In this document: positions 4,982 to 29,428 of the stretch, in pieces
Layout: each line of letters opens with the position of its first letter
Numbering within the stretch: the first letter of the stretch is position 1
Source of the DNA: Nemertoderma westbladi
Taxonomy: Eukaryota > Animalia > Xenacoelomorpha
DNA: 33,470 nucleotides
Direction of reading: 5' to 3'
NCBI GenBank assembly: GCA_032718475.1
Contig: JAUCBJ010006788.1
Coordinates: forward strand, 1 to 33,470
The notes under the pieces: model-generated
What the model saw: the letters and a program-made list of their open reading frames with translations, nothing else
Told to the model about the DNA's origin: nothing
Database searches by the model: none
Made by a program: the position numbers and the translations under genes

Positions 4982-5167
4982 TAGGTAGGGTCTAGATATG
5001 TTATGTAATAACGGCTAACATTCTCAGATTTAATATTGCCATCATAATCTTATTGTTATATACTTATTTATTACACTGTATAATTATGGGAGGCCATGAG
5101 TGCTATTATATTGCGGACATACAAGGTATCAAGGGCTTTGCGAATTTTAAAGATTAATATTTTGGTG

Positions 5168-6173: not shown

Positions 6174-6579
6174 GTAAGTTTGTTATTTAATGTAGAATCA
6201 ATGTGTTTGTAGAGCCACTGAAGTTCTAACTACACTTACAACTAACTTTTGCTGTTAAAGTTTAAATCTGCTAATCGCGTTCTACTGTAAGTACGATTGG
6301 TGCAAATCAAGATTCCGTTTGGTTGGTTGCACATTTGACTTCTGTAACCTCTCTGTGTCTCAAATCCTCTCCGACATCCTTATCCTATCTATAAAGTTAC
6401 ACTGTTCAAACTTCAGAATTCATCAAATTAAACGATAATAATAATAATAATATAAAAGTCACTTTTTCGAAATAATTTAGTTTCCTCCGCCGAAGCCATT
6501 CAACTTATTCTACCAAAGATAAATGTGCATGTAGACCTTCTGTACCTACCGTAAAAAGACCCCCACTTGCTCCACCAAA

Positions 6580-8304: not shown

Positions 8305-8407
8305 TCTGCTAAATTGCTTCGTATTTGTATCTAATGGTGATGAAAACAAAAATATTTTCGAATTAATAGATAAATAATCTCAAGTTACGCAATATTTATT
8401 GTTTTAG

Positions 8408-9035
8408 GATAATGACCATGACCAAGATCTGGTAACCGTCCAAAACGCGTTAAACAATATATACGGCCATCTGATAGGGGTTCAGGGGATAAAGATTCAA
8501 CAAAGAGTTGATGGATCTGTTGACTTTTACCGCACCTGGAACGAATACGTTAATGGATTTGGCGACCCGAATATCAATTTTTGGTTGGGGTTGGAGAAGA
8601 TCCACCAGCTGAGTGAAGGCGGGGTGAAGTTGAGAGTCGATTTGTGGTTCACTGGAGACGGGGTGGGTAGATCCCAATGATGAAACAATGGTAAGCTAAA
8701 GAATTACTACAACGAACACAAATACGCGGAATACAACAACTTCTCTATCGGATCAGCTGCAACTAATTATCGCCTACATGTATCCGGTTACCATGGTACT
8801 GCTGGTGACGCATTGGATATTCCAACGGTGCACCATTCTCTACCAAGGACCGCGATAATGACGGGATGACTCCTACAACTGCGCCGTAGATCATACTGGG
8901 TCGTGGTGGTACAACAGCTGCGGGTTCAGTAGCTTGAACGGAGAATATGGTGCGGGGGTTCAGAAAGGACCTTATTGGGTCGTTTTACTGCATGGGAATC
9001 CGGCTTCTCGAGTTGAAATGAAGATTTGGATTTAG
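8408..9035 (+). pseudogene. Fibrinogen C-terminal (FReD; ficolin/tachylectin-5/angiopoietin-like) domain exon, disrupted as assembled
   Basis: Manual translation gives [39 protein letters not shown]...LRVDL...YAEYNNFSIGSAATNYRLHVSGYHGTAGDAL / YSNGAPFSTKDRDND / YNCAVDHTGSWWYNSCGFSSLNGEY...VEMKIWI*. There is an in-frame TGATGA at ~8678-8683 and frameshifts at ~8818 and ~8870. Confidence 0.9.
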
Positions 9036-9713
9036 TAAAACTGTAAGTTTTATATAAAATTACTAAATAATTCCAATAGAGTTGCGTTGGAAACTAACTT
9101 TTACATTTAATTATAAAATATATATAAATAACATTAATATAATGTAAAAAAATAATAATAAAAAATATTAAAATATAATATAAATATAATAATAATAATT
9201 AATAATAATGAATTCCGAAATAAATATCGTTTTTTACTATAAAATTATTTACTTTAACGTTTTTATTATGTATTTTGCAGTTAGAATTCCCAATAAGTTT
9301 TAGAAGAGACTGAATCTTGGCTATTCTGCTATATGTTACCAGTTTATATGTGTGATGGTTATGGGTTATTGGTTTATGTTTAGTTAATATTTACAATATA
9401 TTAATAAATTATATAGTTGCAATAACTTAACTTTATTTACTTAACTTGCTGTTAGACCAGGAGGGGCCGGTTGCATATAAATCAACCTTAGCTAAGGTGA
9501 ACCTTAACTCATAAGTGTTGCCTTAAATACTTCAACATCCGTATCAGTTGTTGTCTGCCTAATATTACCTAATATATTTTATAGAAACATTTTGAGAACG
9601 TCGGAGGAAGTCCGAGAGCAAAATTTGGACTTTTCAAAATCAGCTGATATAATTAAACAAATCAATTGGTAATTAAAATTCTTTATTACCTAATAATATA
9701 CAAATAAATCCTA

Positions 9714-10313
9714 TTATATTTTAACGCCTCTGTTTGAATATCGCCAGTTATTTGGTTTCTGGAACGGTTCCTGTGCCAAAGCGAGGGAGCGAAGAGGAGT
9801 CCTAAATGAACCGGAATCAGGGGCTGTCATACCAACCCGGATATATACCGAGCGATCAGTCACCCTGACTACGGGGGTCGGGTAGACACGGGGGAAACGG
9901 GAGTGGGGTCGGAATGATTCCGAGGTGGCGGCCCGGAATACAGGAGGGATATCAAGTGATATCCCCGCGGTAGTATCCGGGGTTACAGACGAGACTCGGT
10001 TGAAACTCCTCCGGTAAACCGACGTGTAGGGCCGGGTACCTCGCCCAGCTGTGTCACTCACCCACTCGATGTGGTTCGCAGACAGATGCTGCCGCATATC
10101 TCCGTAGGATTTAAACTTCCCAAACTTCTCGTCGAAATAAACCCGCGAAAGTTCTAGAACATTATTGTTGTCAGAGTGTCGGTAGATATCTGTCATCATT
10201 TCCCCTGCAGTCGTGTTCTCTCGGATTGCCAATGGTGGCGCCTCGTTTCTATGGTAATACCACGTGTGGTCTATTGGTAACCATGGCGACCAAGGATGGC
10301 TAGCTTTCGGCAT
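9714..10313 (-). CDS. Intronless 199-aa hypothetical protein
   Basis: Starts at ATG and is a GC-rich island in AT-rich flanks. TATATAAA lies ~75 bp upstream and AATAAA ~25 bp after the stop, both on the minus strand. No family recognised. Confidence 0.55.
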   Translation of the reverse strand: MPKASHPWSPWLPIDHTWYYHRNEAPPLAIRENTTAGEMMTDIYRHSDNNNVLELSRVYFDEKFGKFKSYGDMRQHLSANHIEWVSDTAGRGTRPYTSVYRRSFNRVSSVTPDTTAGISLDIPPVFRAATSESFRPHSRFPRVYPTPVVRVTDRSVYIRVGMTAPDSGSFRTPLRSLALAQEPFQKPNNWRYSNRGVKI

Positions 10314-10720
10314 ACTCAGAGAATATAGTTCGTCGAATTAATGATGAAGAAACATTTTATTTCATTCTACGTCTAACACTAGCAAATTTATATAAAGTAA
10401 CTCAATATTCCCACTCGAGGTAGAGCCGTACTTTATAAATAAAAATATACAACATAAAAATACCGGTTAATAACGATAATTTTGATTAAATTTGAAAATA
10501 ATTACAAAAAATAAACAAATCCACAAACATGCTAATCGTAATACAACCAACCCGAGAATAAGTCGGCCGTTAATTAGATTGGCATTAACGGTGTATTGAT
10601 TACCCCTCATCATGTTGCCAAGCAATAATTCTCTCAAGGTAATAGATGTTGCCATTCGCAACATCCCATTCGGGGGGGGGGGGGGGGGGGGGGGTTATAA
10701 AGCACACGCTACCCAATAGC

Positions 10721-10775: not shown

Positions 10776-11410
10776 GAAATTAATATTACTCTACGTCCTA
10801 CGATACGTGAATTATATCAAATTTTGTCAACTACACGGAAAAACCAATAAGGACATAAAATCAGGTTAATTTAGTAAAACTTTTTATTATCATATTTGCA
10901 CTACTTGTTTTTTTCGTGCACCGGGGCACATTCAAAATGACCAGAAATTTTCTCGAATGTTATATTTGAGTTCTATAATCGCGATCAGCATCCAAAAAAA
11001 CCGCTATTTACTTCAAATAAATTTATTCTAGCGAGACATAATTATGACAATTTTCGCGCGAAAAATAATTTTGATGGGTTCCAGAAAGGGACCCCAGCAC
11101 GAAAGCTAACTCAGCCATAAATTATTGTTATATTTGAAACAGAGACAGTTTCACCTCCATTCTCCGTGGCTGAGCCAGAATTGGCTGAGAATGTGCAACC
11201 GTGCTGGAGGCCACAATAATTATAAAATTATTAGCCAAAATAATAGAATTATGAACCGCAACTATTAAAAACTGTGAAATTAATATGTTTTGTTATTAAA
11301 TTATATTATTATGTAACAGGTTAAAAAATATATGTGCCCGTCCCAGAGCCCTTACATTACGTGACCCAAAATAATAGAGATTACATAACTGTAATGTCGC
11401 CAGTTCGATT

Positions 11411-14400
11411 AAGATTACTGGCACAAAGGGGAGCAAGAGAATCTACGCTATTCTAGATTCAGCCTCATCTCACAGCTACGTGGATGAAAAGATAGCTGAT
11501 GTAGTGACGGATCTCAGACAAGGTAAGCGCGTCAGTTACACCATAAGTAATATGCACGGACAACGTGCAATACCAGTGACACGAGTTAAGTTATACTTAG
11601 ACACTCTTCTTCCGAAATCGCAACACAGCGAAAAGGAGAGGTCTTTGTTACCCTTTAAGGATTTGACTTTTGCGGCCACCAAGGACTTTAGTAACCTACT
11701 AGGTCCTGTCCCAGAACAATCCTTGGAGGACCGTAAGTATTTCAGACACCTTGGTGTACCTGAATGTCCTGTCAATTATAGATCGGTAGCAATGCTGATC
11801 GGGACAGACCAATTCAACCTACATCAAGTGTGGGAAACCAGACCATCGGCAGTCGTAGCAGGAAATGCATACGCCTGCAGAACGCCGATAGGTTGGTTTA
11901 CTCGAGCGCCTGTGCGCACACTGGATATAAGTGACGAGGAAGACGATATACAAAGTACATGTAGTTTATTAACTACAACGTCGACTCATTCCTTTTCACA
12001 CGATGTAGACTATACTACACTACATTCGACAAAACACGACAGACGTGTAACTAGTATGATAAGTCACAAGGAGCAGCTAATCCACCAGGTGAGTTTAGAA
12101 CTTGGGGAGAAGACGAGTCAGCCAGAGATTCCATTGACGACAGATGATAACGCCGGAAGGCTTGCGAGTCTACCTACCCCAATAACCTCAACAATACCCG
12201 TCGATATCGATGACGACGCGTTAAGAAACCATCAAGTGGAACAAGCTGCACTGGACAAAGAATTAACGGAGAAGACTATCAGGTGGTTAGAACAAGATAC
12301 AGCCGAACCTGGTAGCTACGAACCATGTATGTCGGAACAGGAGAAACAATCTCTGAAGATCATGGAAGATACTATCCGCCAGACGAAAGACGGACATTAT
12401 GAGGTAGGGATGTTATGGCGTAGCCAAAGTCCTAAACTCATAAATAACTACCCGTTAGCTTTAAGACGACTACACTCAATACGACAACGTCTATTAAAGG
12501 ACGAGAAAGCCCATCTGCAGTATAACACTCAGATGGAGACGTATTTGACCAAGGGATACGCTATCCGAATGACTAATCCGGAGATAGTGACTGACCAGAC
12601 ATATTACTTGCCACATCACTTTGTGAGACACCCCGATAAACCAGACAAAGTACGTGTAGTCAATGACTGTGCGGCTCTGTTTGAGGGAATGTCCCTCAAT
12701 AGTGAGTTGATGGATGGACCAAACATGAATAATTATCTTATGGGGGTGATTATGCGCTTCCGTCAGCGTCAAGTAGCCTTTACTTGTGACGTTGAAGCGA
12801 TGTTTCACCAAGTGAGAGCGTTAGAGCGAGACAGAGACAGTTTGAGGTTCCTCTGGTATCCGGAAGGAGACTTAAGTCTACCACCGGCGACTTACCAAAT
12901 GCAAGTTCGCGTTTTCGGTGCCAGGGACAGCCCAAACTGCACGATGTACGCCCTAAAACAAGCCGCTAGGGATCAGAAACACATGTATGACCCAGAGATA
13001 ATTAACATAGTAGAACGTGACTTTTACGTAGACGACGGTCTACAGAGTTGTGACACAGTAGAACGTGCTATAACAGTAGCACTTCAATTATGGGACTGCT
13101 TAGCGGGTGGAGGTTTTAACCTCACCAAATTCGCCTCAAACAGTGCCGAATTAGTAGACTCATTCGGAACGACTGAGCGTGGAGGTGGTGACATAGACCT
13201 AGAGTTCGAACCACTACCGACGACCAAGGTGTTGGGGCTCTTTTGGGACCCAAACACGGACAACTTTCGAGTGAGAGTGAGACTGGACAGTCAAGAAAAC
13301 ACACTGACAAAGAGATCATGCTTGTCAAAATTGAGCCGATTGTTCGATCCATTAGGATTCATCAGTCCAATAATACTGCAAGCCCGCATTTATATGCGCA
13401 TTATCTGGAAGGATGGACTGACATGGGACGAGCCGATCTCATCAGACCAAGTGGACTTATGGAAAACCTGGGAGGCAGAATTATCTTCGCTAGAGGATTA
13501 TTCCATACCCAGAGTCTACTTTCCATTACAAACAACATTTCCTGACAACTTGGAATTACATTGTTTTTCCGACGCCAGTGACAACGGATTTGGTGTGGCA
13601 GCGTACTTGCGCAGACAAGTAGACTCAGAAGAATTCGATGTTTCGCTCATTACTTCTAAGGCAAAAACAATGCCTACTAAGTATATGACGACACCACGAG
13701 CTGAGCTACAAGCCGCAACCCTGTCAACCACAATCGTGAACCTTATACAGATAGAACTACAGTCAAGTTTACAGATATTTTATTGGACTGACGCGACGTT
13801 GGTTTTATTTTACATAAACAACGACACACTTGAATTCAAGACATTCGTAGCTAACCGTCGCGCAGAAATTCTAGACCGTTCAATAAAAGAGGATTGGCGA
13901 CATTGTCCCGGACCACAAAACCCAGCTGATATTGCGTCGCGAGGAATGATGCCTGAGGAATTCTGTAAATCGGAGAACAAAGAATTTTGGCAACACGGAC
14001 CACAATTCTTACAAAGATCAACACTACATTGGCCGCCATTATATGACAACAAGTCTAACACCATCCCTAAGGACGCCGAAATCAAGAAACCAAAAAAGGA
14101 GAAGGCAAAGAAAAGGACGACGGCGGCTAAACTTAAGAAAAAACCGAAGGCGAAATGGAAGGATATAACTTCAAAGGTCAAGAATGGAAGACTTGCGAGC
14201 CTTTCTACACCAGACGTATCGCCAGACGGTCAACCAGACATGTTACTAGACAGCCAACCAGACATTTTGCCAGACATATCACAAAATGTTCAACAAGACA
14301 CTAGTAACATATTGATAAACAGTAAAGCCGCAGTTTCTCTATTGGAGCGGCCTTCTATTGACAAACAACCAGATACGTTACCAGACGTATCGCCAGACAC

Positions 14401-14503
14401 GTTACTAGACGGTCAACCAGACGTTTTGCCAGACACGTCACTAGATATTTCGCCGGATGTTCGCGAAACATTTTACCAGACATGTCACAAAATGTTCTAC
14501 TAG
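11411..14503 (+). CDS. pol: BEL/Pao pol, part 1: aspartic protease, reverse transcriptase, RNase H
   Basis: The frame is open upstream of the GTG call and reads KRIYAILDSASSHSYV (protease). Also LIGTD, YYLPHH, KVRVVND, SLNSELMDGP, DVEAMFHQV, FGARDSP, FYVDD, FDPLG, LHCFSDAS, PRAELQAA, WTDA, FVANR and NPADIASRG. Confidence 0.97.
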   Translation, partial: KITGTKGSKRIYAILDSASSHSYVDEKIADVVTDLRQGKRVSYTISNMHGQRAIPVTRVKLYLDTLLPKSQHSEKERSLLPFKDLTFAATKDFSNLLGPVPEQSLEDRKYFRHLGVPECPVNYRSVAMLIGTDQFNLHQVWETRPSAVVAGNAYACRTPIGWFTRAPVRTLDISDEEDDIQSTCSLLTTTSTHSFSHDVDYTTLHSTKHDRRVTSMISHKEQLIHQVSLELGEKTSQPEIPLTTDDNAGRLASLPTPITSTIPVDIDDDALRNHQVEQAALDKELTEKTIRWLEQDTAEPGSYEPCMSEQEKQSLKIMEDTIRQTKDGHYEVGMLWRSQSPKLINNYPLALRRLHSIRQRLLKDEKAHLQYNTQMETYLTKGYAIRMTNPEIVTDQTYYLPHHFVRHPDKPDKVRVVNDCAALFEGMSLNSELMDGPNMNNYLMGVIMRFRQRQVAFTCDVEAMFHQVRALERDRDSLRFLWYPEGDLSLPPATYQMQVRVFGARDSPNCTMYALKQAARDQKHMYDPEIINIVERDFYVDDGLQSCDTVERAITVALQLWDCLAGGGFNLTKFASNSAELVDSFGTTERGGGDIDLEFEPLPTTKVLGLFWDPNTDNFRVRVRLDSQENTLTKRSCLSKLSRLFDPLGFISPIILQARIYMRIIWKDGLTWDEPISSDQVDLWKTWEAELSSLEDYSIPRVYFPLQTTFPDNLELHCFSDASDNGFGVAAYLRRQVDSEEFDVSLITSKAKTMPTKYMTTPRAELQAATLSTTIVNLIQIELQSSLQIFYWTDATLVLFYINNDTLEFKTFVANRRAEILDRSIKEDWRHCPGPQNPADIASRGMMPEEFCKSENKEFWQHGPQFLQRSTLHWPPLYDNKSNTIPKDAEIKKPKKEKAKKRTTAAKLKKKPKAKWKDITSKVKNGRLASLSTPDVSPDGQPDMLLDSQPDILPDISQNVQQDTSNILINSKAAVSLLERPSIDKQPDTLPDVSPDTLLDGQPDVLPDTSLDISPDVRETFYQTCHKMFY

Positions 14504-16476
14504 ACACTAGTAACATATTGACAAATAGTAAAGCCGCAGTTTCCCTATTGGAGCGGCCTTGTATTGACAAACTACCAATTTTGACACACTTGAGCAACCA
14601 TAAGCACGGTGAAACCTCATGTATTACAGATGTGGGTAGTACCTACGCTAATGTAAATACAGGTGTTACTTTGCGCTCAAGAGACATACCAAACTCGCAA
14701 CCTATGGTGAAACCTGGGATTAATATCGGTAGAAAAATAAGTTTACCGAAACCCACTGACCCCATAGAGTTCAAACCACCATTAACGATCGACTTACGAA
14801 GTACTGACAATCAAGGTAAGAAGACGAAGAAGGACAAATTACTTGTAGACCCGGACGGATCAACAGTCAACAAGGGAATACTTACCGGCGGACCCGTGGG
14901 CCCTTCTAGTAAATCAAAACCTTCCAAATTCTCCATTGACTTACCTGATGACGTCACTAATACTCACGTCGACCGTATTGTAAACCTAACAGATACTTGG
15001 ATAAACGCTTGCCGAAAATTAGCGTGGATTGTACGTTTTGTACAATACGTTAAAGGCAAACGAGACTTTACACGTCGACTTACATTGACTGAGATTGACA
15101 GGTGTGAGATTAAATTAATTCGCCATTATCAATTGCGATATTTCGCACGCGAATTCACATCTATAAGTCAAGGTCAACCAATCAAGTCGTCACCAATACT
15201 GAGTTGGAGTCCGATTATTTATAATGGCTTAATTTGTCATAAATCTCGGCTTCAAAACATTGACTTTAACACAAACTTTAGGTACCCAATAATAATACCG
15301 CAACACCACGAACTACAACGTGCAATGATACTGGACGCACATTTACATCTGAAACACGCTGGAAGACACCACTGTCTTTCCTACTTACGTACAAGATTTG
15401 TATTAATTAGACCCAGTAAAGCGTTAAGTTCAGTGACACGTACGTGTATTATTTGTAAAAAGGTACATTCTAGAATAGGTACCCAAGTAATGAGTGAACT
15501 TCCACAAGCACGACTTCAAGCATTCAGACCACCTTTTACAGAGACTGGAATTGATTGCTTTGGTCCCATACATACGAAACGTGGACGTATACTAGTAAAA
15601 TGCTGGGGACTGATTTTCACATGTATGTCCAGTAGGGCAGTTCATATTGAACGTGTGATGGATCTTTCCACCAATGCGTTTATACTAGCATTGCGGCGAT
15701 TTATCGCTAGACGCGGACTAGTGAAATGCTTGTACTCAGACCAAGGGACAAACTTTGTTGGTGCTCGAAATGAGATTGCTAGAGCCTTTAAGAAATTAGA
15801 TCATGATCAAATCTCAAACGAACTACAACCTCACAAGATTGTTTGGAAGTTTAATCCTCCAGATAGTCCATGGAGAGGCGGAGTCTGGGAGAGATTGATT
15901 AGATCTATAAAGACAGCCATGGCAAAGGTCATTCCAGTAAACCACATATTGACAGACGACCAACTGACAACACTGTTTGTTGAAATCGAGGCAATACTAA
16001 ATACTAGACCAATAGTATTAGTACCCGATGACAAACAATCTCAGTTTGCTTTGACACCGGCACACCTGCTTATGCAGGCACCGACGACTTTGACGCCTAT
16101 TTCTATTCCAATAGAAAGCGATAGCTACGGTAGAAAAGCGTGGAAAATCATGCAACTACTGGCTAACAAATTCTGGGAAATATGGCAAAACCATTATTTG
16201 CCCTCTATTTCTGCCAGAACAACATGGTACAATAACACCCGCGCATTAAAGCCGGGAGACCACGTGCTGTTAGCAGAAGTGAATCTAAAAAGACGCTTCT
16301 GGATAACAGGTGTAATTTTAGCCACTCATCCATCTATGGATGGAGTGACAAGAACTGTGACGGTACGGACAATTGACGGTCGTACAGTAGACAGACCGAC
16401 TCAACGTCTCGTACTTCTTGAAGAGACTCCTAACGAGTCTGGAGACTACAAATCTCCAACTAGTATTAGTAAATAA
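14482..16476 (+). CDS. pol: BEL/Pao pol, part 2: linker and integrase (frameshifted continuation)
   Basis: Zn motif H-x4-H...CIIC; catalytic core TGIDCFGP, RAVHIE, YSDQGTNFVG and GGVWERLI; EAILNTRP, LTPAHLL, and a BEL-type C-terminal domain. The frameshift lies in the duplicated linker at ~14460. Confidence 0.97.
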   Translation: MSQNVLLDTSNILTNSKAAVSLLERPCIDKLPILTHLSNHKHGETSCITDVGSTYANVNTGVTLRSRDIPNSQPMVKPGINIGRKISLPKPTDPIEFKPPLTIDLRSTDNQGKKTKKDKLLVDPDGSTVNKGILTGGPVGPSSKSKPSKFSIDLPDDVTNTHVDRIVNLTDTWINACRKLAWIVRFVQYVKGKRDFTRRLTLTEIDRCEIKLIRHYQLRYFAREFTSISQGQPIKSSPILSWSPIIYNGLICHKSRLQNIDFNTNFRYPIIIPQHHELQRAMILDAHLHLKHAGRHHCLSYLRTRFVLIRPSKALSSVTRTCIICKKVHSRIGTQVMSELPQARLQAFRPPFTETGIDCFGPIHTKRGRILVKCWGLIFTCMSSRAVHIERVMDLSTNAFILALRRFIARRGLVKCLYSDQGTNFVGARNEIARAFKKLDHDQISNELQPHKIVWKFNPPDSPWRGGVWERLIRSIKTAMAKVIPVNHILTDDQLTTLFVEIEAILNTRPIVLVPDDKQSQFALTPAHLLMQAPTTLTPISIPIESDSYGRKAWKIMQLLANKFWEIWQNHYLPSISARTTWYNNTRALKPGDHVLLAEVNLKRRFWITGVILATHPSMDGVTRTVTVRTIDGRTVDRPTQRLVLLEETPNESGDYKSPTSISK

Positions 16477-17137
16477 TTAGGAGTTTACAAATAGATTTCC
16501 ACGTACCTGTACACCGTAATAAGGACAGCGGTAGAATTCCATTGTCTTTATATGTGAACATTGAGGGTGGTACCCTTATGTGTCACATAGGAGCGGGATT
16601 TGTAGGTATAAGAAATGGAATTCTACTTGGAACTCACAATATTGAGACATTTTCGAAAATTTAGACAATCCATTTGGATTTGAAAAATTTTTAAAATTTT
16701 CTCCAGTGAATAGATTTCAGGGTACAGTCGGGTGGAACTTAAAATTAGAGAAACAAGAGAGGAAGACTTGCGAGCCTTTCTTAAAATTTTAATTAAATTT
16801 TACACGGTCTTGTTTCAATAAGTTACGTCAATAAATAGACTCCCCTATATTTATTACTAATTCTTGACTGCTTATTTTCTGATAATAGTTTGGGATCAAA
16901 AGGTGAGTATTTTAGACTCACAGCCAGTTTAGCCCAAATTCGTTTTTATTTCGGCAAAAAATTTTAGATAAGAAGCAGCGTGTCATTAAAGAAACCCTAG
17001 ATCTTAGGCTATGGGTAGGAGGTTAGAGCGTTGTCGAGCCAAAAGGGCAGACGAAACTCTCACGTCTCCTCACAACTAACTACAAACTCTGTTGTATTCC
17101 CTCTAGTAGTAATGATTATGTAACTACACCCCTAATT

Positions 17138-20017
17138 ATGGAGAAAGGGATACAAGGAGAGCCGAGATGGGGATATGATATCCAAGAGTAGGCAGCAGCG
17201 CCATTCGAAAGATTTGGAGCCAAGGACTACACTATATTTGGTATAAAAGAATTATCAGAAAGTACAGCGAAACTCGCGAGAACTAAATATGACTCAAATG
17301 TATTAAAGAGAAGACAAAATGCATTAAATGAAAGAATCGAAAGTTTGCGCAAAACCTTCAATGAACTGTACCCGTACGACGCTTTGTGTGATACGGGAGA
17401 CATTAGCGAAGACCCCGATACTGAAATTAGTCGTTTGTATCATACCATGCAATACCTAAAGGCGCACGAACCTATGCCCGCGGTACGAGATGAATTCGAT
17501 GGAATGCACCTTTACAGACGAACTCGAGGGGACGATAGAGAAACCAAGGAAGCATTTTCAGTTTATAAACTTTATTATCAATGCGGTTCTTGTATGCGCG
17601 AACAACGAAATGCGATTCCGATGCGCTTGAATAAGGAAAATCCCGAACCGATATTGGCGAGGTGTTCGAATCATCAACAACTACGCTACCAGGAAGGAGG
17701 GTATCCTTTATCGAATCCATATCATTCGTTTGCTATGACTGGACCAAAGGCGGGAGAAACTGTCATTTACCCACCTAAGGTTGTTGAACCCGATGTATTT
17801 GAACTTACGCTGGACGAGGCGAATCAGTCAACCCGCGAAAAGAAAGAAGCTCTTAGCCTATACAGAGCCTACAAGGCTTTCGAGAAAGGTGAGATGGAAG
17901 AATGGGGCGGAAGACTCGCGAGCCTACCTTACCATTGGACGTCACACGATCAAACTCCAGCTAAGGAGATGACACCGGAAGTTTTCGAGAGCATAAACTT
18001 TGCTCAAAACGTTATTCAGAGACTACAGATTGCATCCCCGGAAAGGACAAGAGAAATGCAACCATATAGTACTTCAACTACGAAACCATTGAGTACGACA
18101 CTCAATTTTCCTATTAGTATACCAGTCCGACAGGATACGACGTACGAAATACCCATCGTGGATCATCCAGAAATCATTTCAAACTTGGAGTTTCTTCCTG
18201 CAGTTGTTTTCAGCGATATGAGTAAGATATATGATTTACGTAGACATATTACTCAAAAGGTCGTGTACAACGTCCCACCTCATATTCAAGACTTTAAGGA
18301 ACTGGATAGAGCTGGTGCCGATATAGCTCCGAGTAATTTGAAAGGATATTTAACCAAGACGATTCGTTTATGGATTGGAATCGGAACCTTCGAGTCGGAT
18401 ACAGATATTGCCGCGGATTGGCGAGGTAAGGTTATTCGTTTCGAAGATGATAAGGACATAGAGAAGATTTGGCAACCTTCGGAAGAATTGTTGGATGAAT
18501 GGAATAGGACGTTTAGATCGTTCCAGGAAAATGGTTACATGTTTTACGATAACGAGAGCGGCAGTCATCAACAGAGTTTGACTTCTAAGACTATACAAAT
18601 TAGAGCGGCGGACGGAGTCCTGCACGTTTTCAGTAGACAGAGGAGCGACAAACGAATGCCGATACCTCCAGCAAATACAAAGCGACACCATCTCATCACT
18701 GACATAGTAAAGAAGATGGACCAAGCTTGTAATATCGACGCTAGAATGCTACCGAAGATGGTAAGAAATATGATTTTAGATAAAACTGTTGTAAAGATTG
18801 GATCAGGAGTAAGGGAGGACTTAATTAGCGACTTCGCTGGCATGACGGACAGCGATGACCGACTACCGACACCTTACGTCGACACTCGACCTCTTATTTT
18901 GTGGTCTATAGAACAGGGATATTTTCGTGAGTATAATACTCAGAAGACTGGAACCGGATACATTTCCTACCTGTTATTCAATTGGGATTATAAGGAAAGT
19001 AAGAGAACCAAGTATATTGAGACTTATGGAGAAGGTGATACTCCAGATATGAGTGAGTTTGAATCACAGCTTAAATGGAGAGGATGCGTGTATTGGGCTA
19101 TTACGTCACCTCCAAGAGCGGTCTTACAATATTATTTAGCAATAGAGTCATCAGTGAATGTTTGCCTAATCGCCGACATTGTGTCTCGGACTCTCAAAAG
19201 ACATCCACTTTGTCTCGGAGAAGATCATACATTCTACATGGAAGGGAGAATTCATACCGACGTGTTTAGACGATTCCTTGAACCCTTCTACAACTCCGAC
19301 GCTCAGTGTAATGCCTTTACTCGAGCAGGATTTAGTATATTTCGAGACGTGTATCTTCGCTGTGCGGGATCTCTTATCGAAAGACCATCTATGTTTACAT
19401 TGTTACCCTATGAAGGAGAACGTATCGTGGAGATTACGGATGAATCACGGCAGACGCGCGCGCCTATCGGTCACCTTGGTGATGATTTCGAAGTAACTAC
19501 TACGATCACTGACGATCCTTTAGAGGAACTTCTTGAGATAGAAAGGAACCTCCCGAAGAAATCTCAGACGGAGATTCGACAACTTGAAGCAACAGATGCT
19601 ATAGTTTGTATACAACCTTCAGAAACCTACCAACCCATAGATCCAGATGATTACGATTATAGTGTGGGAGGAAGCGCTCGACCGATTGGAGATCTTATAT
19701 ACGAACGAGTGTGGTACCCTGCCAATACGATGTGTGGTAAATGTGGCGTCGCTGGACATCATATGACAAAGTGCAGTGGAAAGCACATTACTACGACTCA
19801 GCTAATCTGTGGATGGTGTGGAGATCAAGGGTCTCATACCTTTTATACTTGCTGGAGATTTATGGCTCAATGTACTTATTGCAATATAAAAGGGCATCGA
19901 GCATCTGAATGCCAACTAAGAGACATACCTTATGAACACGAATCTGCAAAACTCGTGAGAAAATTATTAAAAAAAATTACGTTAAAAAATACGCACAAAG
20001 AAGACGATTTCCGATGA
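17138..20017 (+). CDS. Retrotransposon accessory protein: degenerate DEDDy (WRN/EXD/Mut-7-like) 3'-5' exonuclease fold plus three CCHC zinc knuckles
   Basis: 890-aa ORF at 17345-20017, with an in-frame ATG at 17138 separated by one TAG (17189). Exonuclease-like blocks at ~18360-19190: IGIGTFESD, TIQIRAADGVLHVF, LPKMVRNMILDKTVVKIGSGVREDL, YVDTRPL, GTGYISYLLF and QYYLAIES. Knuckles at 19733-19912: CGKCGVAGHHMTKC, CGWCGDQGSHTFYTC and CTYCNIKGHRASEC. Confidence 0.75.
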
Positions 20018-20831
20018 GGGCGCATCTTGGATTTTGGGCGGTAAATCCCCAAACGATGATGTCGGAAGGATACATCTCCGCTATGCCCCAATATGGCGAA
20101 CTTATCGAGGTAGTCGATATTTTGCCCCACGACAGTGGATTCCGAGTAGTGCGCGAGTATCTATTACAGATTCACCCGGATAACAAAAACACGTGGAATT
20201 TTCAGAAAGTCGTTAATCGCATCACGTATGGTGAATTCGATCGTTTCCGAACTGAAAAGCGGAATAAAGGAGCTTGGTTAACCGTCGCATGGGCGTACCG
20301 AGCCGCGTTTTACCACAAACGTATACGAGCGAGCGTATTCGAGGAAGAGGAGGTCCTAGAGGCGACAAATATACCAGCCACTCCGGTTGCGCCGTCTGGA
20401 CGTCACCCTCGGGAGGACGGACAGGGTAGGATCATACGGGTCCAGAAAGTGGGCCAACAGTTAAAGAAGTCTATTAATATAGAAGAACGCAAGGGAGCTG
20501 AGCCGACCATTCGAATTACTCGGGATACGGTATCACTTCCTAGAGAACCAACAGGAGGATCGGGACACACACCAGCTGATCAAAAGGGTCTGCGTCGTCC
20601 GCTTCCCGCGCGTTCCCAGACGTTCTACCAACTGTAGTGACAACTGATCGGTCACGAGGAATCGGTCGAGGTTTTGGGATGCCAAATAGACGAATTTGCG
20701 AGGAAATAGTCGCACAGTCTCTCAACGTCCCAAGTAAACCAGTGACTCGTCCCATTAGTCCCATATCACGAGCAAAGTCACCTGTGCGCAGTTTTCGAGG
20801 ACGCGGCAGGGCTCGATCAACTAAGCGATAA
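20014..20831 (+). CDS. Probable frameshifted C-terminal continuation of the accessory gene (or a small downstream ORF), basic and Arg-rich at its end
   Basis: ORF 20014-20637 overlaps the previous stop (ATGA) and ORF 20637-20831 abuts it. Coding-like composition continues to 20831, then drops to AT-rich UTR. It ends RSFRGRGRARSTKR. Confidence 0.55.
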
Positions 20832-21383
20832 AAGGGAGGGCAAGGGTGGACGGAAGACTCATGAGCCTTTCTTATAGTTTCATTTGTAAAGTGTTATATT
20901 TTGTATTTAGAAAGTTTTATAGTTAGAAAGTTTTGTGCTTAGAAAGACTCATATTTTGTAATTATTCCGAACTTATGCAATCTACATTTAGGCATGAAAG
21001 TATTTGTAATTATTTGAATTTATGCAATATTTGAGATGCAATAGTAGATGGAAGACTCGCGAGCCTTTCTTATTGTTTTCATTTATTTGTATTTGTAATT
21101 GTTTGAATTTATGCAATATTGAGATGCAATAGATTTATATTGGTGAATTTAATTTAGATTTATATTGTACTTACTTAGTAAAGCCTTAAATACGTAAAGT
21201 TTGAATTTGTAATTATTTTGTATCGAATCATTACGTAGAAAGGAAGTATTATTTGAAATTTAATTGTAAATATGTATTAGTAGGTATTAAGTATTAATAG
21301 GTACTAAGTATTCTATAGTTTGATTGATTATTGGTGAAAACCGTATATTTTATGCACAATAATATCCTGTTTTCATGGAGCGG

Positions 21384-22027
21384 TATAGAATTATATTCCC
21401 TAAATGCCGTGGATTTTCAAAATTTTATTTTTATTCGAATTAACTTTGCTAAAAGATTACTTTGAGTCCTCATTTATATTTGTTATATCATTTGTACGCC
21501 TATTGGTCAAGTGGTTCAGTAGCTCAGTCGGTAGAGCGTTGGAAATTATATGTGTAGTAGGTATTGAGTTCGAATCCTAGTAAGTGCGAATTATTTTTTG
21601 TGCAGAATTTCAACTCATTTAAATTGACCGCTACAAATTAAAGTGCATTTGTTTATACCTAGATTAACCAATGAGGCTGTAGTTATTAGATTGTAACCAA
21701 TGTCGTGCAAGTTATATATTAGCTGGACCAATAGCTATCTTTAAAAACCTGTTAGAACCTATAGAACAATCGAGAATTTTCTCGATTGATTGCAGCACAA
21801 ATTTGCTATAAAAAGGTGCGATTTCGTTCATTAGTTATACTTTTCATCAATCGTATACCTTCTTATCTATATCTCAATCGTTTATCTTCTTGATTCACTA
21901 TCTTACATTGTTTATTGTATAATAGTTATTATTTGATTTTGTAATAAAAGTTAGAAATACTTGTCACATCTGCAAATTTTCTATCTGTTTTACCATGCTT
22001 CACCACGGTAAACCCAACTAAGGGACA
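21384..22027 (+). repeat. Candidate 3' LTR of the BEL/Pao element
   Basis: Follows GGAGCGG (21377, PPT-like). Contains three CCAAT boxes (~21669, 21697, 21728), TATAAAA (21807) and AATAAA (21943), and ends AGGGACA followed by ggaTGG. No second copy in the window confirms it and the 5' TG is not clean. Confidence 0.55.
21513..21599 (+). ncRNA. tRNA-derived sequence with Pol III A and B boxes; not an intact tRNA
   Basis: A box/D-arm TAGCTCAGTCGGTAGAGCG, B box GAGTTCGAATCC and a T6 run at 21594-21599. The anticodon and acceptor stems pair poorly. Confidence 0.7.
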
Positions 22028-23383
22028 GGATGGCCGGCTAGAGATCGGGCCGCAGCAATGAACGGGAACATCAAGGGAATGTAGACAGGAGACAACCCGA
22101 AATACCATCTTGAGTTATTCGCCCATCGCCTGAAAGGTTAGACAGCGTTCGATGCCTTGCTACCTAAGCGTAAGAGCAAAGATCAAAGGTAGAAGTAGTG
22201 ACACGCTGTACGCCTAAAATAACATCTTAGGGACTGTACTGTTTTAATTCAGGAAAAAACCGCAGTAGACCTTCATATTCCTACGGGGGGAGAGGAGAGA
22301 GAGAGCAGGCAGAGATACTAGTACGCAGATAGGACGTAGGCACACCGGTACGAAGCATACAATTGGTAGGGTGCAGCAAACTGTACGCCTAACTCTTGCT
22401 AAGTGCAGGTGCGTGTGCGACTATTTGTAGTACAACGGTGTCCATTGCATCAGAACTTGTAGGCTAGGAGGGTTGCTGTGTTTCACCTGAATTAGGATTG
22501 TACCGTTCAGGCGGTAGGGCAGTTTACGACTAGGCGCAAATAAATTGAGGCTATTAGGGATATACTAACATCTACCGTGTCCCCGCCAACGTCCTGATAG
22601 GAAGTTACCCAGCCTAACTAGGTGACTAAAATTCCAGATAAGAGCCAGGATAGCTATTAGTAACTGTACGCCTACTGTAGTAAACTAACACATTTCTTCT
22701 TAGTATTAGGGACCTGGTACCTAAAATTGCCGAATTCTGGGCGTAGCATTAACTTTATGCCTGAATTTGAGTCCTGGAAATACGCAAGAAGGGAAGGAGC
22801 CTTATCATTCGTGAGTATTGGACCTACAAGTTACAAAATTAGAATATTCGTAAAATGCACACCGTACCCAGTAATTATATATGTGAAGGAGGAAAACTGC
22901 TTTGACTGTTCAGAATTAACACACGCGCGTTAGAAATTATTTACACCTCAAAATATATAAAATTAACTTTCATCCGTACTGCGCTTTGCCCGCTAGTTAG
23001 ACATCTCCAAATCTCTGCACCTAGCTAGCATCCCTTTCGCCCAACCATATAAATTACACCGCGGCAAAGTATACGAGCCCCTTAGTCCGTCAGTGAATCA
23101 GCCTGATTTTAGGATTCGCTGCACGGGATTTTGTTTTATCGAAGTTTGTCTGCTCGTAGACTGTTTTCTGCCTCACCGGTTATAAGAGATCGATACTGCA
23201 ATATATTCGCTTACTTAGAGTTTACTGTTTTGGTGAGAAGGTCGGATTTATGATTTGATTCACAAACTTTACAGTAGGATATTGCAGGTATTGTTACTGT
23301 CTCTTCCAACAATTAGGCCTAAGTATAATAAGCAATAATATACACAGAAATTCGTAATAGAAAATACGAAAAAATACGTATAA

Positions 23384-24813
23384 CTAGTCCCCACACACTG
23401 AATTTATAATTAGATCGATCTCATCACGGTTAAAACCCAAAATATCGATTTCATTATTGCGGTAATTAAGTAGTTCTTTAATTAATTGAATAGCGCCCGG
23501 ATCCCCGTTTTTATACCACTTTCTTGATGCTACCTGCTTGGACATGAGCTTCAGTAAGTTCAACTCTTGACAAAAGTTTCTAATGCGGCGGAAGTTAACC
23601 CCACTGACTGTTCTACAATCTGGCAGAGAGACATTCGCGAGAAATCTGACACATAATTTATTGCTGTTGAGGAGAGACTGTGCAAAAGAAACAAACCGGC
23701 TGCAAATCATTGACATCGGATGCGGAAAAGTACACAAACCCTCCCCAATATAACAATGAGTTTTGTAGGGAAGGTTATAGACCGTACGGACATTAATATT
23801 CCATGCGCGACCCACACGCTGCGCTCCCTCTGACCAGATATCCCACAAACTGCTACCATACAAACACATCGCATATCTTCTTTGTATTTCAAACAAACAC
23901 GATGGATATGAGAATGAAAATTCCTGGTGTAAACTCCGTAATTTGCCTATAAATTGTCCTCTCTTACGAGTCATGTCTTGATCAAAGCTGCAGTTATAAT
24001 CAACAACATTGTCAAGGTGCATCACCTTCTTCACCCACGGAAGCTTAACTCCATCAAGTTTAACGTTATTACTAGGCTCAGACCAACGTTTTACAAACGG
24101 GATACACTTTGATTTGCTTTTTGCTGGGTCACTATCGCGGCTGAATTTTAATTTGTGTTTCAAAGAGAATTCCTCACAAATCGAGATCATAAATTGTAGA
24201 CCAACTATTGTAGGACATAATAACAATAAGTCATCGGCATATGCCAATACACCGAAATACACTGAACTGATACTGCAACCAACCTTGGACTTACGAAGAG
24301 CCACAATCAGTCTGTCTACAATGATACAAAAAAGAACCGGCAAGGCTACCGAACCCTGCCTGATGCCATTCGAAACCAAAAAAGGATCCGATAAATTGTT
24401 ACCCCGGCATTTAACACAACATGACTGTTCCTTGTTCATCCACAGAAGCACCCTTACAAACAAAACCGAAAAACCTTTCTTTAGTAACTCCAAAAATAAT
24501 GTTACCCAATCCATCATATCGAACGCTTTCGATAAATCAAGAAAACACCCATAGACTGGGGTAGAGAACCGCGAATAATGCGAAATGACTTCTTTAGCAG
24601 TCCATGTACAGCTGGTGGTACTCGAACCTTTTTGAAAGCCAAACTGAAGTTCATCTACAATAACTCTGTCCCCTTGAGAAAGTAGCATTACCCACTCAAA
24701 CACCTTAATAAGTAGTGAAGATAACGCTATTGCCCGGTAATTATTTGATTTACTGAGATCACCCAAATTGTCTTTAACCAATGGAACAAGAGAACAAGTT
24801 AGAAGGTACTTAA
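23384..24813 (-). pseudogene. LINE ORF2 reverse transcriptase domain and C-terminus
   Basis: NYRAIAL, QFGFQKGSST, FLDLSKAFD, GIRQG, LAYADDLLL and KSKCI motifs. Confidence 0.95.
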
Positions 24814-26366
24814 CCCTATTAGTACCGGGCTATAAAATGCTGTACAAATACCGGGAGGGGGTCATATTGACCCCCCCCTCTAAAATCTACAAATATTTAC
24901 GAAAACGTCTGATTTTTTGTTTGTACGTAGGTATCACTTGTCTGGATACGACCGAAAAAAAAAAATTTCGAAAAAATGTACTGGGGTGGTTATATTGCAG
25001 CACCAAAATTACAAGTAGTGCACAATTTTCACAAAATTTGAAAGTTACATTTTCGGCTAATTATTTTTCAATACAGGTTTTCTGGGGTGCAAAAAACATT
25101 GGAAAATATTTAAAAATGATATGATTACTATAAATGGCCGTTTAGTCCTCTCTGCGTAGGAAAAAAATGAAAAAAACAAGTAACCAGCACTTTTCAGGTA
25201 GAACACAAAATTTTTAATTCACTTATACGATGCTATAAATTCACATTTTCAGGTTTTCGATTGCGCTGATTCTAATGGAATACATTTCTAATATGCCAGA
25301 TCATTGATACTTGTATTTTTCGGCGTAATTTGGCAAATTTTGGTGCTAGCACCAAAATTCGTACCCATCACCAAAAAGTACAAGTTTGCGATGTCCAGTG
25401 CTGTTTTTATGGATTCCATCGGATTCAGGACCCTCATAAACCCGTATAACGCAAGAAACAAGGTGATACCATCTACTGATAAATTTGCATATTTTCCAAA
25501 ATTTGGTGCTGGCACAACAATTTTTACCCACTGGCGAAAAATACCAGTTTGAGAACTCTTATGAAATTTTTACTGATTCCATTGAATTCAGAACCATCAC
25601 AAACCCGTATAACGCAAGAAACAAGGTGACACAATCAATTGATATATTTGATGGTTTTCAAAATTTGGTGCTAGCACCACATTTTGCACCCACATCCGAA
25701 AAATACAAGTTTGAGATGTCTAGTTCGATAATTATTTATTCCATTGAATTCAGAACAGCCATAAACCTCTAAAATGCAAGAAATAAATTGTCACAAGCAA
25801 TTTTATCTATCGAAGGAATTTTCAAAATTTCGTGCTAGCACCAAAATTTGCACACAGCACCGAAAAATACAAGTTTGATACGCTTGGTGCAACTCGTATA
25901 TATTTCATCGAATCTAGAACCCCAAAAAACCCCAATTGCGTAAAAAACAAGTTTCAAACAATCAATTTACAAAATTGACATAATTCAAAATTTGGTGCTG
26001 GCACCAAAATTTGGCAACCACCGAAAAAAACAAGTTTGAAATTTCTAAATCAATTTATATGAATTCCATCAAATTTCTAACACCAAAAAACCGGTGTAAA
26101 TCAAAAATAGAGATGTTTCAATTCATATTTAATGAAATGTAATTTTCAAAAAACGTCTCAAAAAAAGTGCCAAAAGTAGGGTTAAAAAATGGTGCTATAA
26201 CTCGAAAAGTACCCAATATTTTTGAAAACGGTTTTCACTACTAGGAAGACAATAGATTTTTAGGAAAAGTCATAAAATTTCAGATTCCCAACTGCGTTTG
26301 TTTCAGAATTATAATAAAAAAACCATGGGAGGGGTCATATTGACCCCCCCCCCGGGTTTAATAGGG
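24814..26366. mobile_element. piggyBac-like non-autonomous DNA transposon, 1553 bp
   Basis: TTAA duplicated at 24810-24813 and 26367-26370. Termini CCCTATTAGTACCGGG and CCCGGGTTTAATAGGG form an imperfect TIR. Excision restores the LINE frame HGFVL|KYLLTCSLVPLVKDNLGD. No transposase ORF. Confidence 0.93.
25240..26100. repeat. Internal ~163-bp tandem repeat (about 5 units) of the piggyBac-like element
   Basis: Palindromic core TTTTGGTGCTAGCACCAAAA and variants at ~25341, 25504, 25666, 25830 and 25993. Confidence 0.85.
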
Positions 26367-27815
26367 TTAAGGACAAACCCATGAATGAGGAAGCTATTGA
26401 ACATTGTCGCAATGTGTGCGTGTAGTAATTCTCCTCCATTAATCAGACAGTCGGAATTAAAATCCAAAAGAACATCAGATTTCGAGTGTTTCAGTTTGAG
26501 TATAGCTGCTCTGACAAGTTCTGGAGTGATTTTATCCGAATCATGAACGGAGTAGCTGCTCAATTTAACAATAATTTCCTGGTCTAGCGCATTAGTATCT
26601 GTACCATATTCCTGGTTGAATAGCCTCGAGTAAATCGATGCAAAATTACCTGCAATCCCCTTACCATCTGCAATTCCATCAATGGTGCTGCTCAGCATAC
26701 CGCATTTACGCCCACGCAAATTCTTTATCATACTAAAAATATCATTATTATTATCCAGGCACGCTTGTAAAAATTTATCTCTCTTTACTGTATCACTCGA
26801 CTTTTTTAGACGACGTACCGCATATTTATATTGTGCTCTTGATGAACAACGTAAATAAAACAAATTACCGTTATTTGCATCTGGTTTACCAGCTGCACAC
26901 TACATATTATGCCAGAACATGGCTTCCGTTTTATACGGCTTCACATAATCATTCCACCCCGGCCATTGTTTATTATTTGAAGCACCTGATACCTGTAAAC
27001 AATTACATGCTGCTTTATCAATAGCATCTAACACCTCAAAACAATAACATTCTAAATCAATTGTGTGATCTGGGTTGTCACACAAAATATTGCTACACTG
27101 GCTACATTCTAAATTAAGATTACTGAGTGAATTATTTAAACAACTAATAAAATTTTCCTTTTCTGTATCATTTGCCTTTTGAAAATTAGGCTTCCGTTTA
27201 TTCACGTTGTCTAATACATCGGGTACAGAATATATTATATGAACGTAATTAAATTGTGCATAAATAGGGCTATGGTTAGATAAATTATCTCCCGAATGCA
27301 CAACCCCACAATCTGACACATTATCAATAAGAGTACTCGAACACATAAAACGATCAATTAACGATGTACTTATGGTGTTGTTGGCACAAAACATATATGT
27401 ATAATCTACCTCGTGGAAGTCCCATATGTCTACAAGACCAATCTCATTGAAAAATGATTGTACTGTACGAACATGTGCCGTGGATCGCACAAAATCGGTA
27501 TTCAAATCTCCCGCTAGCAATGTAAGGGGAGAACCGTTGTTATTTAAAACTGTACGAATGTCGTTCAATATTATCAAGAGTTCATCTGACACTGTATCAC
27601 GTAACTGTGGATCAACAAGAAAATACGCATTTAACAAAAGCAATGGGTTACTTTCACCGGGCAAACATAACTGAACAGCCTGCAAACGCTAATTACCAGT
27701 TTTTACTGTATTAACATTAATAAATTTCATCAATTCTCTTTTAATAAATATACATAGTCCTCCTACCGGACGACCACGTTGCTGCTCATTACGATAGACC
27801 GCAGGTTCTATCGGT
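26367..27815 (-). pseudogene. LINE ORF2 apurinic-like endonuclease (N-terminally truncated) and linker
   Basis: RGRPVGGLCIFI, LLNAYF, LAGDLNTDF, YTY, LIDRF, LSNHSPI and PGWND motifs. Two in-frame TAG stops, plausibly from TGG. Confidence 0.92.
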
Positions 27816-29428
27816 GTGTAGGTACAGGGTGTAGGAGACGGAGTGGGATGTATGGGGTGATCTGTGGTGTGGAGGGTGTGGGAGACGGAGTGGGAAGTAC
27901 AGGAGGATCTGTGGAGGGTGTGGGAGGTGGAGTGGGAAGTACAGGAGGAACTGTGGAGGGTGTGGGAGACGGAGTGGGAAGTACGGGAGGATCTGTGGAG
28001 GGTGTGGGAGACGGAGTGGGAAGTACAGGAGGATCTGTGGAGGGTGTGGGAGACGGTGTGGGAAGTACAGGAGGATCTGTGGAGGGTGTGGGAGGTGGAG
28101 TGGGAAGTACAGGAGGATCTCTGGAGGGTGTGGGAGACGGAGTGGGAAGTACAGGAGGATCTGTGGAGGGTGTGGGAGACGGTGTGGGAAGTACAGGAGG
28201 ATCTGTGGAGGGTGTGGGAGGTGGAGTGGGAAGTACAGGAGGATCTGTGGAGGGTGTGGGAGGTGGAGTGGGAAGTACAGGAGGAACTGTGGAGGGTGTG
28301 GGAGACGGAGTGGGAAGTACGGGAGGATCTGTGGAGGGTGTGGGAGACGGAGTGGGAAGTACAGGAGGATCTGTGGAGGGTGTGGGAGACGGTGTGGTAA
28401 GTACAGGAGGATCTGTGGAGGGTGTGGGAGGTGGAGTGGGAAGTACAGGAGGATCTCTGGAGGGTGTGGGAGACGGAGTGGGAAGTATGGGGGGATCTGT
28501 GGAGGGTGTAGGAGACGGAGTGGGAAGTATGGGGGGATCTGTGGAGGGTGTGGGAGACGGAGTGGGAAGTACAGGAGGATCTGTGGAGGGTGTGGGAGGT
28601 GGAGTGGGAAGTACAGGAGGATCTCTGGAGGGTGTGGGAGACGGAGTGGGAAGTATGGGGGGATCTGTGGAGGGTGTAGGAGACGGAGTGGGAAGTATGG
28701 GGGGATCTGTGGAGGGTGTGGGAGACGGAGTGGGAAGTACAGGAGGATCTGTGGAGGGTGTGGGAGGTGGAGTGGGAAGTACAGGAGGATCTCTGGAGGG
28801 TGTGGGAGACGGAGTGGGAAGTATGGGGGGATCTGTGGAGGGTGTGGGAGACGGAGTGGGAAGTACAGGAGGATCTGTGGAGGGTGTGGGAGGTGGAGTG
28901 GGAAGTACAGGAGGATCTCTGGAGGGTGTGGGAGACGGAGTGGGAAGTATGGGGGGATCTGTGGAGGGTGTGGGAGACGGAGTGGGAAGTACAGGAGGAT
29001 CTGTGGAGGGTGTGGGAGGTGGAGTGGGAAGTACAGGAGGATCTCTGGAGGGTGTGGGAGACGGAGTGGGAAGTATGGGGGGATCTGTGGAGGGTGTAGG
29101 AGACGGAGTGGGATGTATGGGGTGATCTGTGGTGTGGAGGGTGTGGGAGACGGAGTGGGAAATACAGGAGGATCTGTGGAGGATGTGGGATACGGAGTGG
29201 GAGGTATGGGGTGATCTGTGGTGTGGATGGTGTGAGAGACGGAGTGGGAAGTACAAGAGGATCTGTGCAGGGTGTGGGAGACGGAGTAGGAAGTACAAGA
29301 GGATCTGTGGAGGGTGTGGGAGACGGAGTTGGAAGTACAGGAGGATCTGTGGACGGTGTGGGAGACGGAGTGGGAAATACAGGATGATCTGTGGAGGGTG
29401 TGGGAGACGGAGTGGGAAGTACAGGAGG
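27816..29428. repeat. 42-bp G-rich minisatellite, about 38 copies
   Basis: Unit GGAGGATCTGTGGAGGGTGTGGGAGACGGAGTGGGAAGTACA. The stop-free unit explains the overlapping repetitive ORFs on both strands. Confidence 0.98.

Follow-up and report, generated by a model that had tools for sequence, protein, structure and literature searches.

The window analysed here, a 33,470-nt stretch of the Nemertoderma westbladi assembly GCA_032718475.1 (contig JAUCBJ010006788.1), contains one copy of a BEL/Pao long terminal repeat (LTR) retrotransposon in which the integrase region of pol is followed, on the same strand, by a large open reading frame (ORF3) with an exonuclease-like domain and three zinc knuckles, and by a small one (ORF4). 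The pol domains, as read from the ORFs and Pfam matches, lie in the order protease, reverse transcriptase (RT), RNase H and integrase, and the presence of both Peptidase_A17 and DUF5641 identifies a Pao-type pol, placing the element in BEL/Pao (Belpaoviridae). The coordinates of all features of the element are collected in Table 1.

Table 1. Features of the BEL/Pao element in the window, with amino acid positions given for P0001, the 941-aa product of the stop-to-stop frame within ORF3
Feature	Position	Strand	Evidence
BEL/Pao pol, frame 1: protease, RT, Pao RNase H region	11378..14503	+	ORF; Pfam Peptidase_A17 (E 1e-41)
BEL/Pao pol, frame 2: integrase	14362..16476	+	DUF5641 (E 1.5e-21), Integrase_H2C2 (E 1.5e-4)
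Spacer between pol and ORF3, non-coding, ~660 nt	16477..17137	+	Four of five listed indels; contigs cross the integrase end
ORF3, ~960 codons, ATG at 17138	17138..20017	+	ORF calls, contig variants
Probable DnaQ/DEDD-fold domain, residues ~431-670, with insertions relative to WRN	18482..19201	+	Profile matches and guided model
ExoI candidate, D453-x-E455 (YMFYDNE; YMFYDNES = residues 449-456)	18548..18556	+	Register of NF004963
ExoII candidate, D543 (KIGSGVREDL)	18818..18820	+	WRN-type and RNase D alignments
ExoIII candidate A, Y612-x3-D616 (YGEGD), canonical YxxxD	19025..19039	+	27 of 64 MAFFT runs
ExoIII candidate B, Y648-x3-E652 (YLAIE), preceded by W635...Q646	19133..19147	+	WRN-like context by eye; 0 of 64 MAFFT runs
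Three CCHC zinc knuckles, ORF3 C-terminus	19733..19912	+	Starts at 19733, 19808 and 19871
ORF4, 207 aa, basic, pI 9.8	20014..20637	+	ORF call; start codon and ORF3 stop share ATGA
LTR-like cluster: three CCAAT boxes, TATA (21807), AATAAA (21943), terminal TGTCACA	21668..21969	+	Sequence scan

ORF3 as an accessory gene of a multi-copy family

A preliminary description of the locus had assigned about 3.8 kb of coding sequence to the region behind the integrase. A long frame on the same strand is indeed present, but it resolves into two ORFs of about 3.5 kb in total, and the stretch from 16.95 to 17.13 kb is non-coding and carries indels. ORF3, which has no introns, is interrupted in the window copy by an in-frame stop at codon 18 (17189-17191), beyond which 941 codons are open from stop to stop (17192-20017); a frame of this length would arise by chance at the composition of the window with a probability of 2e-27. 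Every contig over the codon-18 site differs from the window in all three sequencing runs that cover it, so that this stop is peculiar to the window copy. The length of ORF4 varies among copies near 20585, so that its C-terminus is provisional, and no family match was obtained for it in NCBIfam or Pfam. The pol frame is likewise disrupted in the window copy at about 14.46-14.50 kb, where public contigs of other copies differ; short internal duplications were seen around this break in the linker between RNase H and integrase (14209-14577).

Evidence on other copies comes from public contigs of four of the nine listed sequencing runs (X1, X3, X4 and X5), which were aligned to the window. The region from 16.9 to 20.9 kb was covered by 3,703 X1 contigs falling into four identity classes (1228, 1381, 797 and 297 contigs, from 99+ to <90%) and by 1,488 X3 contigs spread over all classes from 99+ to <90%, a distribution for which many divergent copies are the sole explanation. 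Cover is unbroken from pol and the integrase through ORF3 and ORF4 and past ORF4, and single contigs cross the integrase end (X4 record 21, X5 record 26), although among the public contigs of the four runs no one contig spans pol, ORF3 and the LTR. The exonuclease-like region is spanned by a contig of 981 nt (17974-18954) that shows 181 differences and 2 gaps, and there is a sister family with about 81% identity.

These copies indicate that the protein encoded by ORF3 is maintained. Of the five indels listed, the one outside the spacer (16.95-17.13 kb) lies in ORF4 and none lies in ORF3. Substitutions were counted in the 40 best-supported rows of 268, with 28 of these rows in ORF3; 24 of the 28 are silent against an expected fraction of 0.32 (binomial p 6e-9), corresponding to a crude dN/dS of about 0.08, the comparison among copies that the preliminary description had proposed. 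Within the exonuclease-like domain 7 of the 8 listed substitutions are silent, including the one in the D543 codon. Two points temper this result: the 28 sites are only the best-supported rows out of 268, and pol, counted likewise from the top of 795 rows, has just 8 silent substitutions among 21. In most of the pol rows the window copy differs from every other copy, and we take these to be neutral changes private to the dead copy in the window. In ORF4, three of six listed substitutions are silent.

The three knuckles reported previously are present, two with the pattern C-x2-C-x4-H-x4-C and one with C-x2-C-x5-H-x4-C; Pfam zf-CCHC matched the third below its cut-off (E 0.003). No transmembrane (TM) helix was found in ORF3 (best 19-residue hydropathy 1.38), as had also been stated, and no fusogen or env family was matched in Pfam or PHROGs. 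Since ORF3 combines three CCHC knuckles with the lack of a TM segment, it is not an env gene. Together with the divergent copies and the predominantly silent changes, this bears out the earlier view of an element-borne gene of a non-env kind: ORF3 is a real accessory gene of a multi-copy BEL/Pao family and is under purifying selection. By eye, an additional cysteine- and histidine-containing pattern (C-x2-C ... C-x2-H), possibly an extra zinc site, was noticed in the N-terminal part at residues 131-161 (17582-17674).

DNA joints that exclude 17277-19310 (X1 and X4) and 17293-19422 (X3) reveal derivatives missing most of ORF3, showing that the gene is not required in cis. X4, unlike the other three runs, shows intron-type joints at two places in adjacent host genes (9042-9281, GT..AG, and 10430-10552) and may therefore be RNA; it also holds a gap-free ORF3 contig of 1,887 nt, a weak hint of ORF3 RNA.

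The window contains six copies of a near-palindromic 21-nt motif (12155, 14186, 16761, 17909, 20852 and 21050; span 12155..21070), all within the element and distributed over pol, ORF3, the spacer between them and the DNA further downstream. Three of the copies lie in coding linkers, where all read GRLASL in frame. The chance expectation is 0.02 for a pattern that was, however, derived from the copies themselves, and a contig about 79% identical re-enters the window at the 20852 copy. As an RNA hairpin the motif was rejected, folding no better than shuffles at any of the six sites (z -1.4 to +1.3), and the one match to it in a viral contig was at chance level; the motif may be a DNA-binding site.

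Homologues of ORF3 were absent from all 7,015 and 1,903 candidates of two homologous-protein searches, from the viral, metagenome and genome contigs searched and from a phage tblastn, and comparison with Protein Data Bank sequences yielded chance-level matches only. A phmmer search of 1.84 billion representative proteins returned two matches, both to the knuckles and both in retroelement-type proteins. No match to ORF3 or ORF4 was found at 12 BEL loci and one gypsy-like locus in metagenomes (38-59% integrase identity), most of which have little DNA behind the integrase and are thus uninformative on distribution; one further candidate (L146) proved to be a phage false match.

The exonuclease-like domain

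The only match of ORF3 among 18,950 NCBIfam models was the DnaQ epsilon family NF004963 (domain E 0.016, whole protein E 0.09), whose profile positions 4-66 align to residues 449-512. The Asp and Glu of ExoI occupy positions 8 and 10 of this profile in members of the DnaQ family, and D453 and E455 coincide with them if the match has no gap at this point; a strand is predicted at this D-x-E in both structure models described below, with weak statistical support. Independently of this, the ExoII blocks of Escherichia coli RNase D (E 0.53) and of a Bacteroides WRN-type exonuclease (pairwise BLAST E 0.002; 4 of 500 shuffles reach the segment score) align with MILDKTVVKIGSGVREDL; the closest solved relative of the Bacteroides protein is WRN. 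The DnaQ and WRN-type signals come from different families, with the motif blocks in the correct order. In 64 MAFFT runs, ExoI was placed at D453/E455 in 40 and ExoII at D543 in 40 and at D547 in 24, placements that are forced alignments and hence no proof of homology.

The preliminary description had quoted the blocks GVREDL and YLAIE, both of which are present, and had read ExoI as GTFESD, lacking a canonical DxE. This last assignment picked the wrong block: GTFESD was used by none of the 64 alignments nor by the NCBIfam match, and YMFYDNE holds the D-x-E. The argument for a pseudo-nuclease, which was based on the misplaced ExoI, falls with it. For ExoIII, YLAIE is accompanied by a second, canonical candidate, YGEGD. 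The spacing of 73 from D543 to D616 equals that from D143 to D216 in WRN, and this candidate has low confidence in the guided model; the surroundings of YLAIE resemble, by eye, WRN W200...Y212.

Several results weigh against a DnaQ-like domain. Neither PF01612 (DNA_pol_A_exo1) nor any other Pfam nuclease was matched, PHROGs gave no nuclease either, and no search met a curated threshold. Whole-domain hidden Markov models (HMMs) were weak, with 11 and 24 of 1001 controls scoring at least as high and no match for the RNase D set; a self-built DnaQ HMM was equalled by 105 of 1000 controls, the hhalign probability was 0.7%, and glocal z values of 1.5-3.6 came with inconsistent registers. Of 300 shuffles, 62 and 20 equalled the chain of blocks, the WRN/RNase D profile gave no score to the segments of ExoI and ExoIII, and unrelated families matched comparably weakly (HydF, E 0.023; Copper-fist, E 0.014). 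All self-made domain profiles were bacterial, with no eukaryotic Mut-7/EXD profile among them. An unguided single-sequence AlphaFold model failed (predicted local distance difference test, pLDDT, 33.5; best Z 2.9). When guided by a 51-row bacterial DEDD alignment, the model reached a pLDDT of 62 and a predicted template modelling score of 0.60, 116 of the 254 residues scoring at least 70; the 50 rows returned by VIA all bore the titles of DEDD-type nucleases or of polymerases that contain a domain of this type (best Z 10.5, root-mean-square deviation 4.3, 161 aligned), and Foldseek gave EXD2 as best match (E 2e-3) and a TMq of 0.50 for Nibbler. This demonstrates compatibility only, since the input alignment dictated the fold and the reasoning is circular, and the guided model does not decide between the ExoIII candidates.

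Taken together, the single NCBIfam match and the WRN-type ExoII block make the DnaQ-like fold claimed earlier probable, and we hold it with good confidence, albeit on weak matches. Given this fold, the balance tips slightly towards an intact catalytic set, predicted to consist of D453, E455 and D543 with either D616 or E652; the acidic set is complete with D616 and has one Asp-to-Glu change with E652. RICE1 is described as active with Glu replacing the last Asp (PMC5451212). As judged from these residues, the ORF3 product may have nuclease activity; it could also be a pseudo-enzyme, though nothing points that way.

The domain shares with Nibbler/Mut-7, EXD1/EXD2, the WRN exonuclease and RNase D the order of motifs and a KxGxGxxxD-type ExoII block, with Nibbler and EXD2 as top matches of the guided model, but differs from them in its large insertions (88 aa between ExoI and ExoII against 59 in WRN), in scoring below curated thresholds and in the added knuckles. 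DnaQ epsilon (DEDDh; NF004963) aligns to ORF3 over ExoI and the subsequent PIP...HLIT stretch, whereas ORF3 resembles WRN in its ExoII region and has Tyr-type sequences at both ExoIII candidates.

Possible functions of ORF3

We consider it about as probable as its negation (roughly 0.5) that ORF3 encodes a DnaQ-fold 3′-5′ exonuclease with three zinc knuckles that trims RNA 3′ ends to evade small-RNA silencing. Rotifer ORF3s are described as being expressed mostly via spliced messages (PMC5408684), and on this model the protein would be translated from a subgenomic, probably spliced RNA; splice-site-like sequences were noticed by eye in the spacer at about 16.89-16.97 kb. ORF4 would be produced by stop-restart after ORF3. 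The knuckles would bind single-stranded RNA and the nuclease would trim or clear RNA 3′ ends, and the element transcripts would thereby escape host small-RNA silencing. Of the functional options, one in which the protein works in trans, with element RNA or else small RNAs and slicer products as its target, falls a little short of even odds. We favour a helper that acts in trans against host surveillance because canonical BEL/Pao elements without the gene and deleted derivatives both exist; an adaptor resembling Egalitarian or CERV would rank next and a replication accessory last. A bolder version, in which env has been replaced by a two-gene counter-silencing module made up of an active DnaQ exonuclease with knuckles and the coupled basic protein, perhaps acting via the six copies of the 21-nt motif, is doubtful; if true, it would represent a retrotransposon-encoded nuclease directed at the host small-RNA pathway.

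With the same fold, ORF3 could instead be an RNA adaptor with dispensable catalysis that exports, localises or packages genomic RNA in the manner of Egalitarian or the CERV protein of Cer1, a possibility that we regard as real but tentative. The three knuckles and the basic coupled ORF4 would suit such a role, as would the 21-nt motif repeated along the element if it were a binding site, and there are precedents: Egalitarian is described as retaining its DEDDy residues without needing them for RNA binding or function (bioRxiv 2025.08.03.668247), and CERV, a retrotransposon accessory protein, as required for export of genomic RNA (PMC10309623). Because Egalitarian keeps all five catalytic residues yet dispenses with them, motifs are no proof of activity, a caution that applies to the exonuclease reading as well. 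Against an adaptor stand the preserved acidic residues of ExoI and ExoII, with the variant in the D543 codon being silent, and the failure of the 21-nt motif to fold better than shuffles as RNA. A part in replication, by trimming the tRNA primer, genomic RNA or cDNA 3′ ends or by proofreading for the RT, appears improbable. It would be in line with the activity of this fold on RNA and single-stranded DNA, with the 3′-end processing first proposed for the bdelloid DEDDy ORFs (PMC5408684) and with an NCBIfam match to a proofreading subunit; however, ORF3 is separate from pol rather than fused to it, canonical BEL/Pao elements are described as having only gag, pol and sometimes env (PMC8742986), and derivatives with ORF3 deleted occur.

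That the domain is not DnaQ-like at all, its motifs having arisen by chance in an otherwise unfamiliar knuckle protein such as a diverged second gag-like product, is unlikely. Every whole-domain statistic is weak, both phmmer matches concern the knuckle regions of retroelement-type proteins and the C-terminal knuckles are gag-like in position, but no capsid family was matched in Pfam or NCBIfam, and it is improbable by chance that the sole NCBIfam match should be to the superfamily stated beforehand and be in register at the DxE. Least probable by far is that ORF3 is a host gene merely adjoining the element, or a passenger picked up by recent transduction that does nothing for its carrier. The missing contig across pol, ORF3 and the LTR would leave room for this, and it is opposed by the intronless structure and shared strand of ORF3, its many divergent copies, the unbroken cover from the integrase to beyond ORF4, the 21-nt motif distributed over pol, spacer, ORF3 and downstream sequence, and purifying selection among copies.

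An exonuclease gene borne by a retroelement has precedents outside BEL/Pao. As stated in the preliminary description, DEDDy ORFs are reported for bdelloid gypsy elements: they are known as ORF3s of the Ty3/gypsy elements Juno and Vesta and of Athena, with activity not demonstrated (PMC5408684, PMC6431247), and a DnaQ-like domain has been termed a well-known accessory domain of LTR elements (PMC6338049). The ORF3s sequenced in the rotifer study (env and GDSL types) are described as varying neutrally within the genome. A DEDDy ORF in nematode Cer1, also named earlier, was not confirmed, the word exonuclease occurring 0 times in the main text of two Cer1 papers, one of them PMC10309623, the CERV study, and the available part of PMC11662393 giving no support. 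Compared by description, the DEDDy ORF3s of Juno, Vesta and Athena/Terminon resemble the present one as separate non-env ORFs behind pol with no TM or signal segment, and they have a DnaQ-like fold, which is probable here, and one altered acidic residue (DEED in bdelloids), which the present protein may share; they differ from it in that here the carrier is a BEL/Pao element, the protein has about 960 aa and three knuckles, and an ORF4 is coupled to it. The DEDDy ORFs of Juno, Vesta and Athena did not figure among the results of the protein searches made with ORF3. BEL/Pao elements with env (Roo, F-type; mosquito elements, chuvirus gB-type; PMC13524379, PMC8742986) likewise bear a third gene between the integrase and the 3′ end, whereas ORF3 lacks a TM helix and a fusogen match and is nuclease-like. 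Egalitarian is an RNA-binding adaptor with an EXO domain but is a host gene, and CERV, an accessory protein encoded by a retrotransposon, acts on genomic RNA.

In the ICTV profile and the accessible parts of PMC3118150 and PMC13524379, extra BEL/Pao genes are env-like only, and no published exonuclease ORF of a BEL/Pao element was found in the literature searched; Repbase, GyDB, subscription papers and supplements lay outside this scope and may hold one. The kind of gene is known from other retroelement groups; within the reach of these searches, its BEL/Pao carrier, its size and its architecture are novel. If BEL/Pao elements have a conserved gene with a nuclease fold, it would be a further independent capture of this enzyme class after those by rotifer gypsy and Penelope-like elements, suggesting an advantage that has recurred. 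With selection visible within one family and candidate residues named, the role of a transposon-borne DEDD protein becomes testable with one protein.

Element ends and surrounding sequences

The element copy begins at about 11.33-11.40 kb. No gag was found in the frames 5′ of the protease and no 5′ LTR was seen, so that the window copy is 5′-truncated and an LTR pair could not be demonstrated. For the downstream LTR proposed previously, the promoter- and polyadenylation-type sequences at 21.67-21.97 kb are a candidate that lacks a direct-repeat partner, self-BLAST revealing no long one in the window for 20.6-23.4 kb; no site of nine purines followed by TG was found at the element. The cluster is plausibly part of a 3′ LTR with provisional limits. 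Within the high-copy 3′ region, 21505-21590 contains a tRNA-like sequence with A-box and B-box that was called by neither ARAGORN nor Rfam, and beyond the cluster, repetitive DNA at 21970-23311, with a second TATA (23048) and a CCAACA end adjoining a long interspersed nuclear element (LINE), is either a long LTR or a different repeat.

The LINE (23384-27688, minus strand) encodes an endonuclease and an RT (RVT_1, E 8.5e-19) and is broken by another element (about 24814-26366) that has inverted ends of CCCTATTA, flanking TTAA and 163-nt internal repeats and that we take to be piggyBac-like. A 359-codon open frame without a Pfam match lies at 31793-32872 (plus strand). Upstream of the BEL/Pao element are a host-type ORF (9714-10337, minus strand; Pfam HDNR, E 5.4e-6) with an intron-type joint upstream of it in X4, and a broken coding sequence (8370-9040, plus strand), presumably fibrinogen-C-like by eye, with a GT..AG intron after it that X4 contigs skip. 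Tandem repeats, comprising a 2.2-kb unit in two full copies and a part as well as 35-nt and 42-nt minisatellites, occupy 1-5000, 6550-8300 and 27740-29260.

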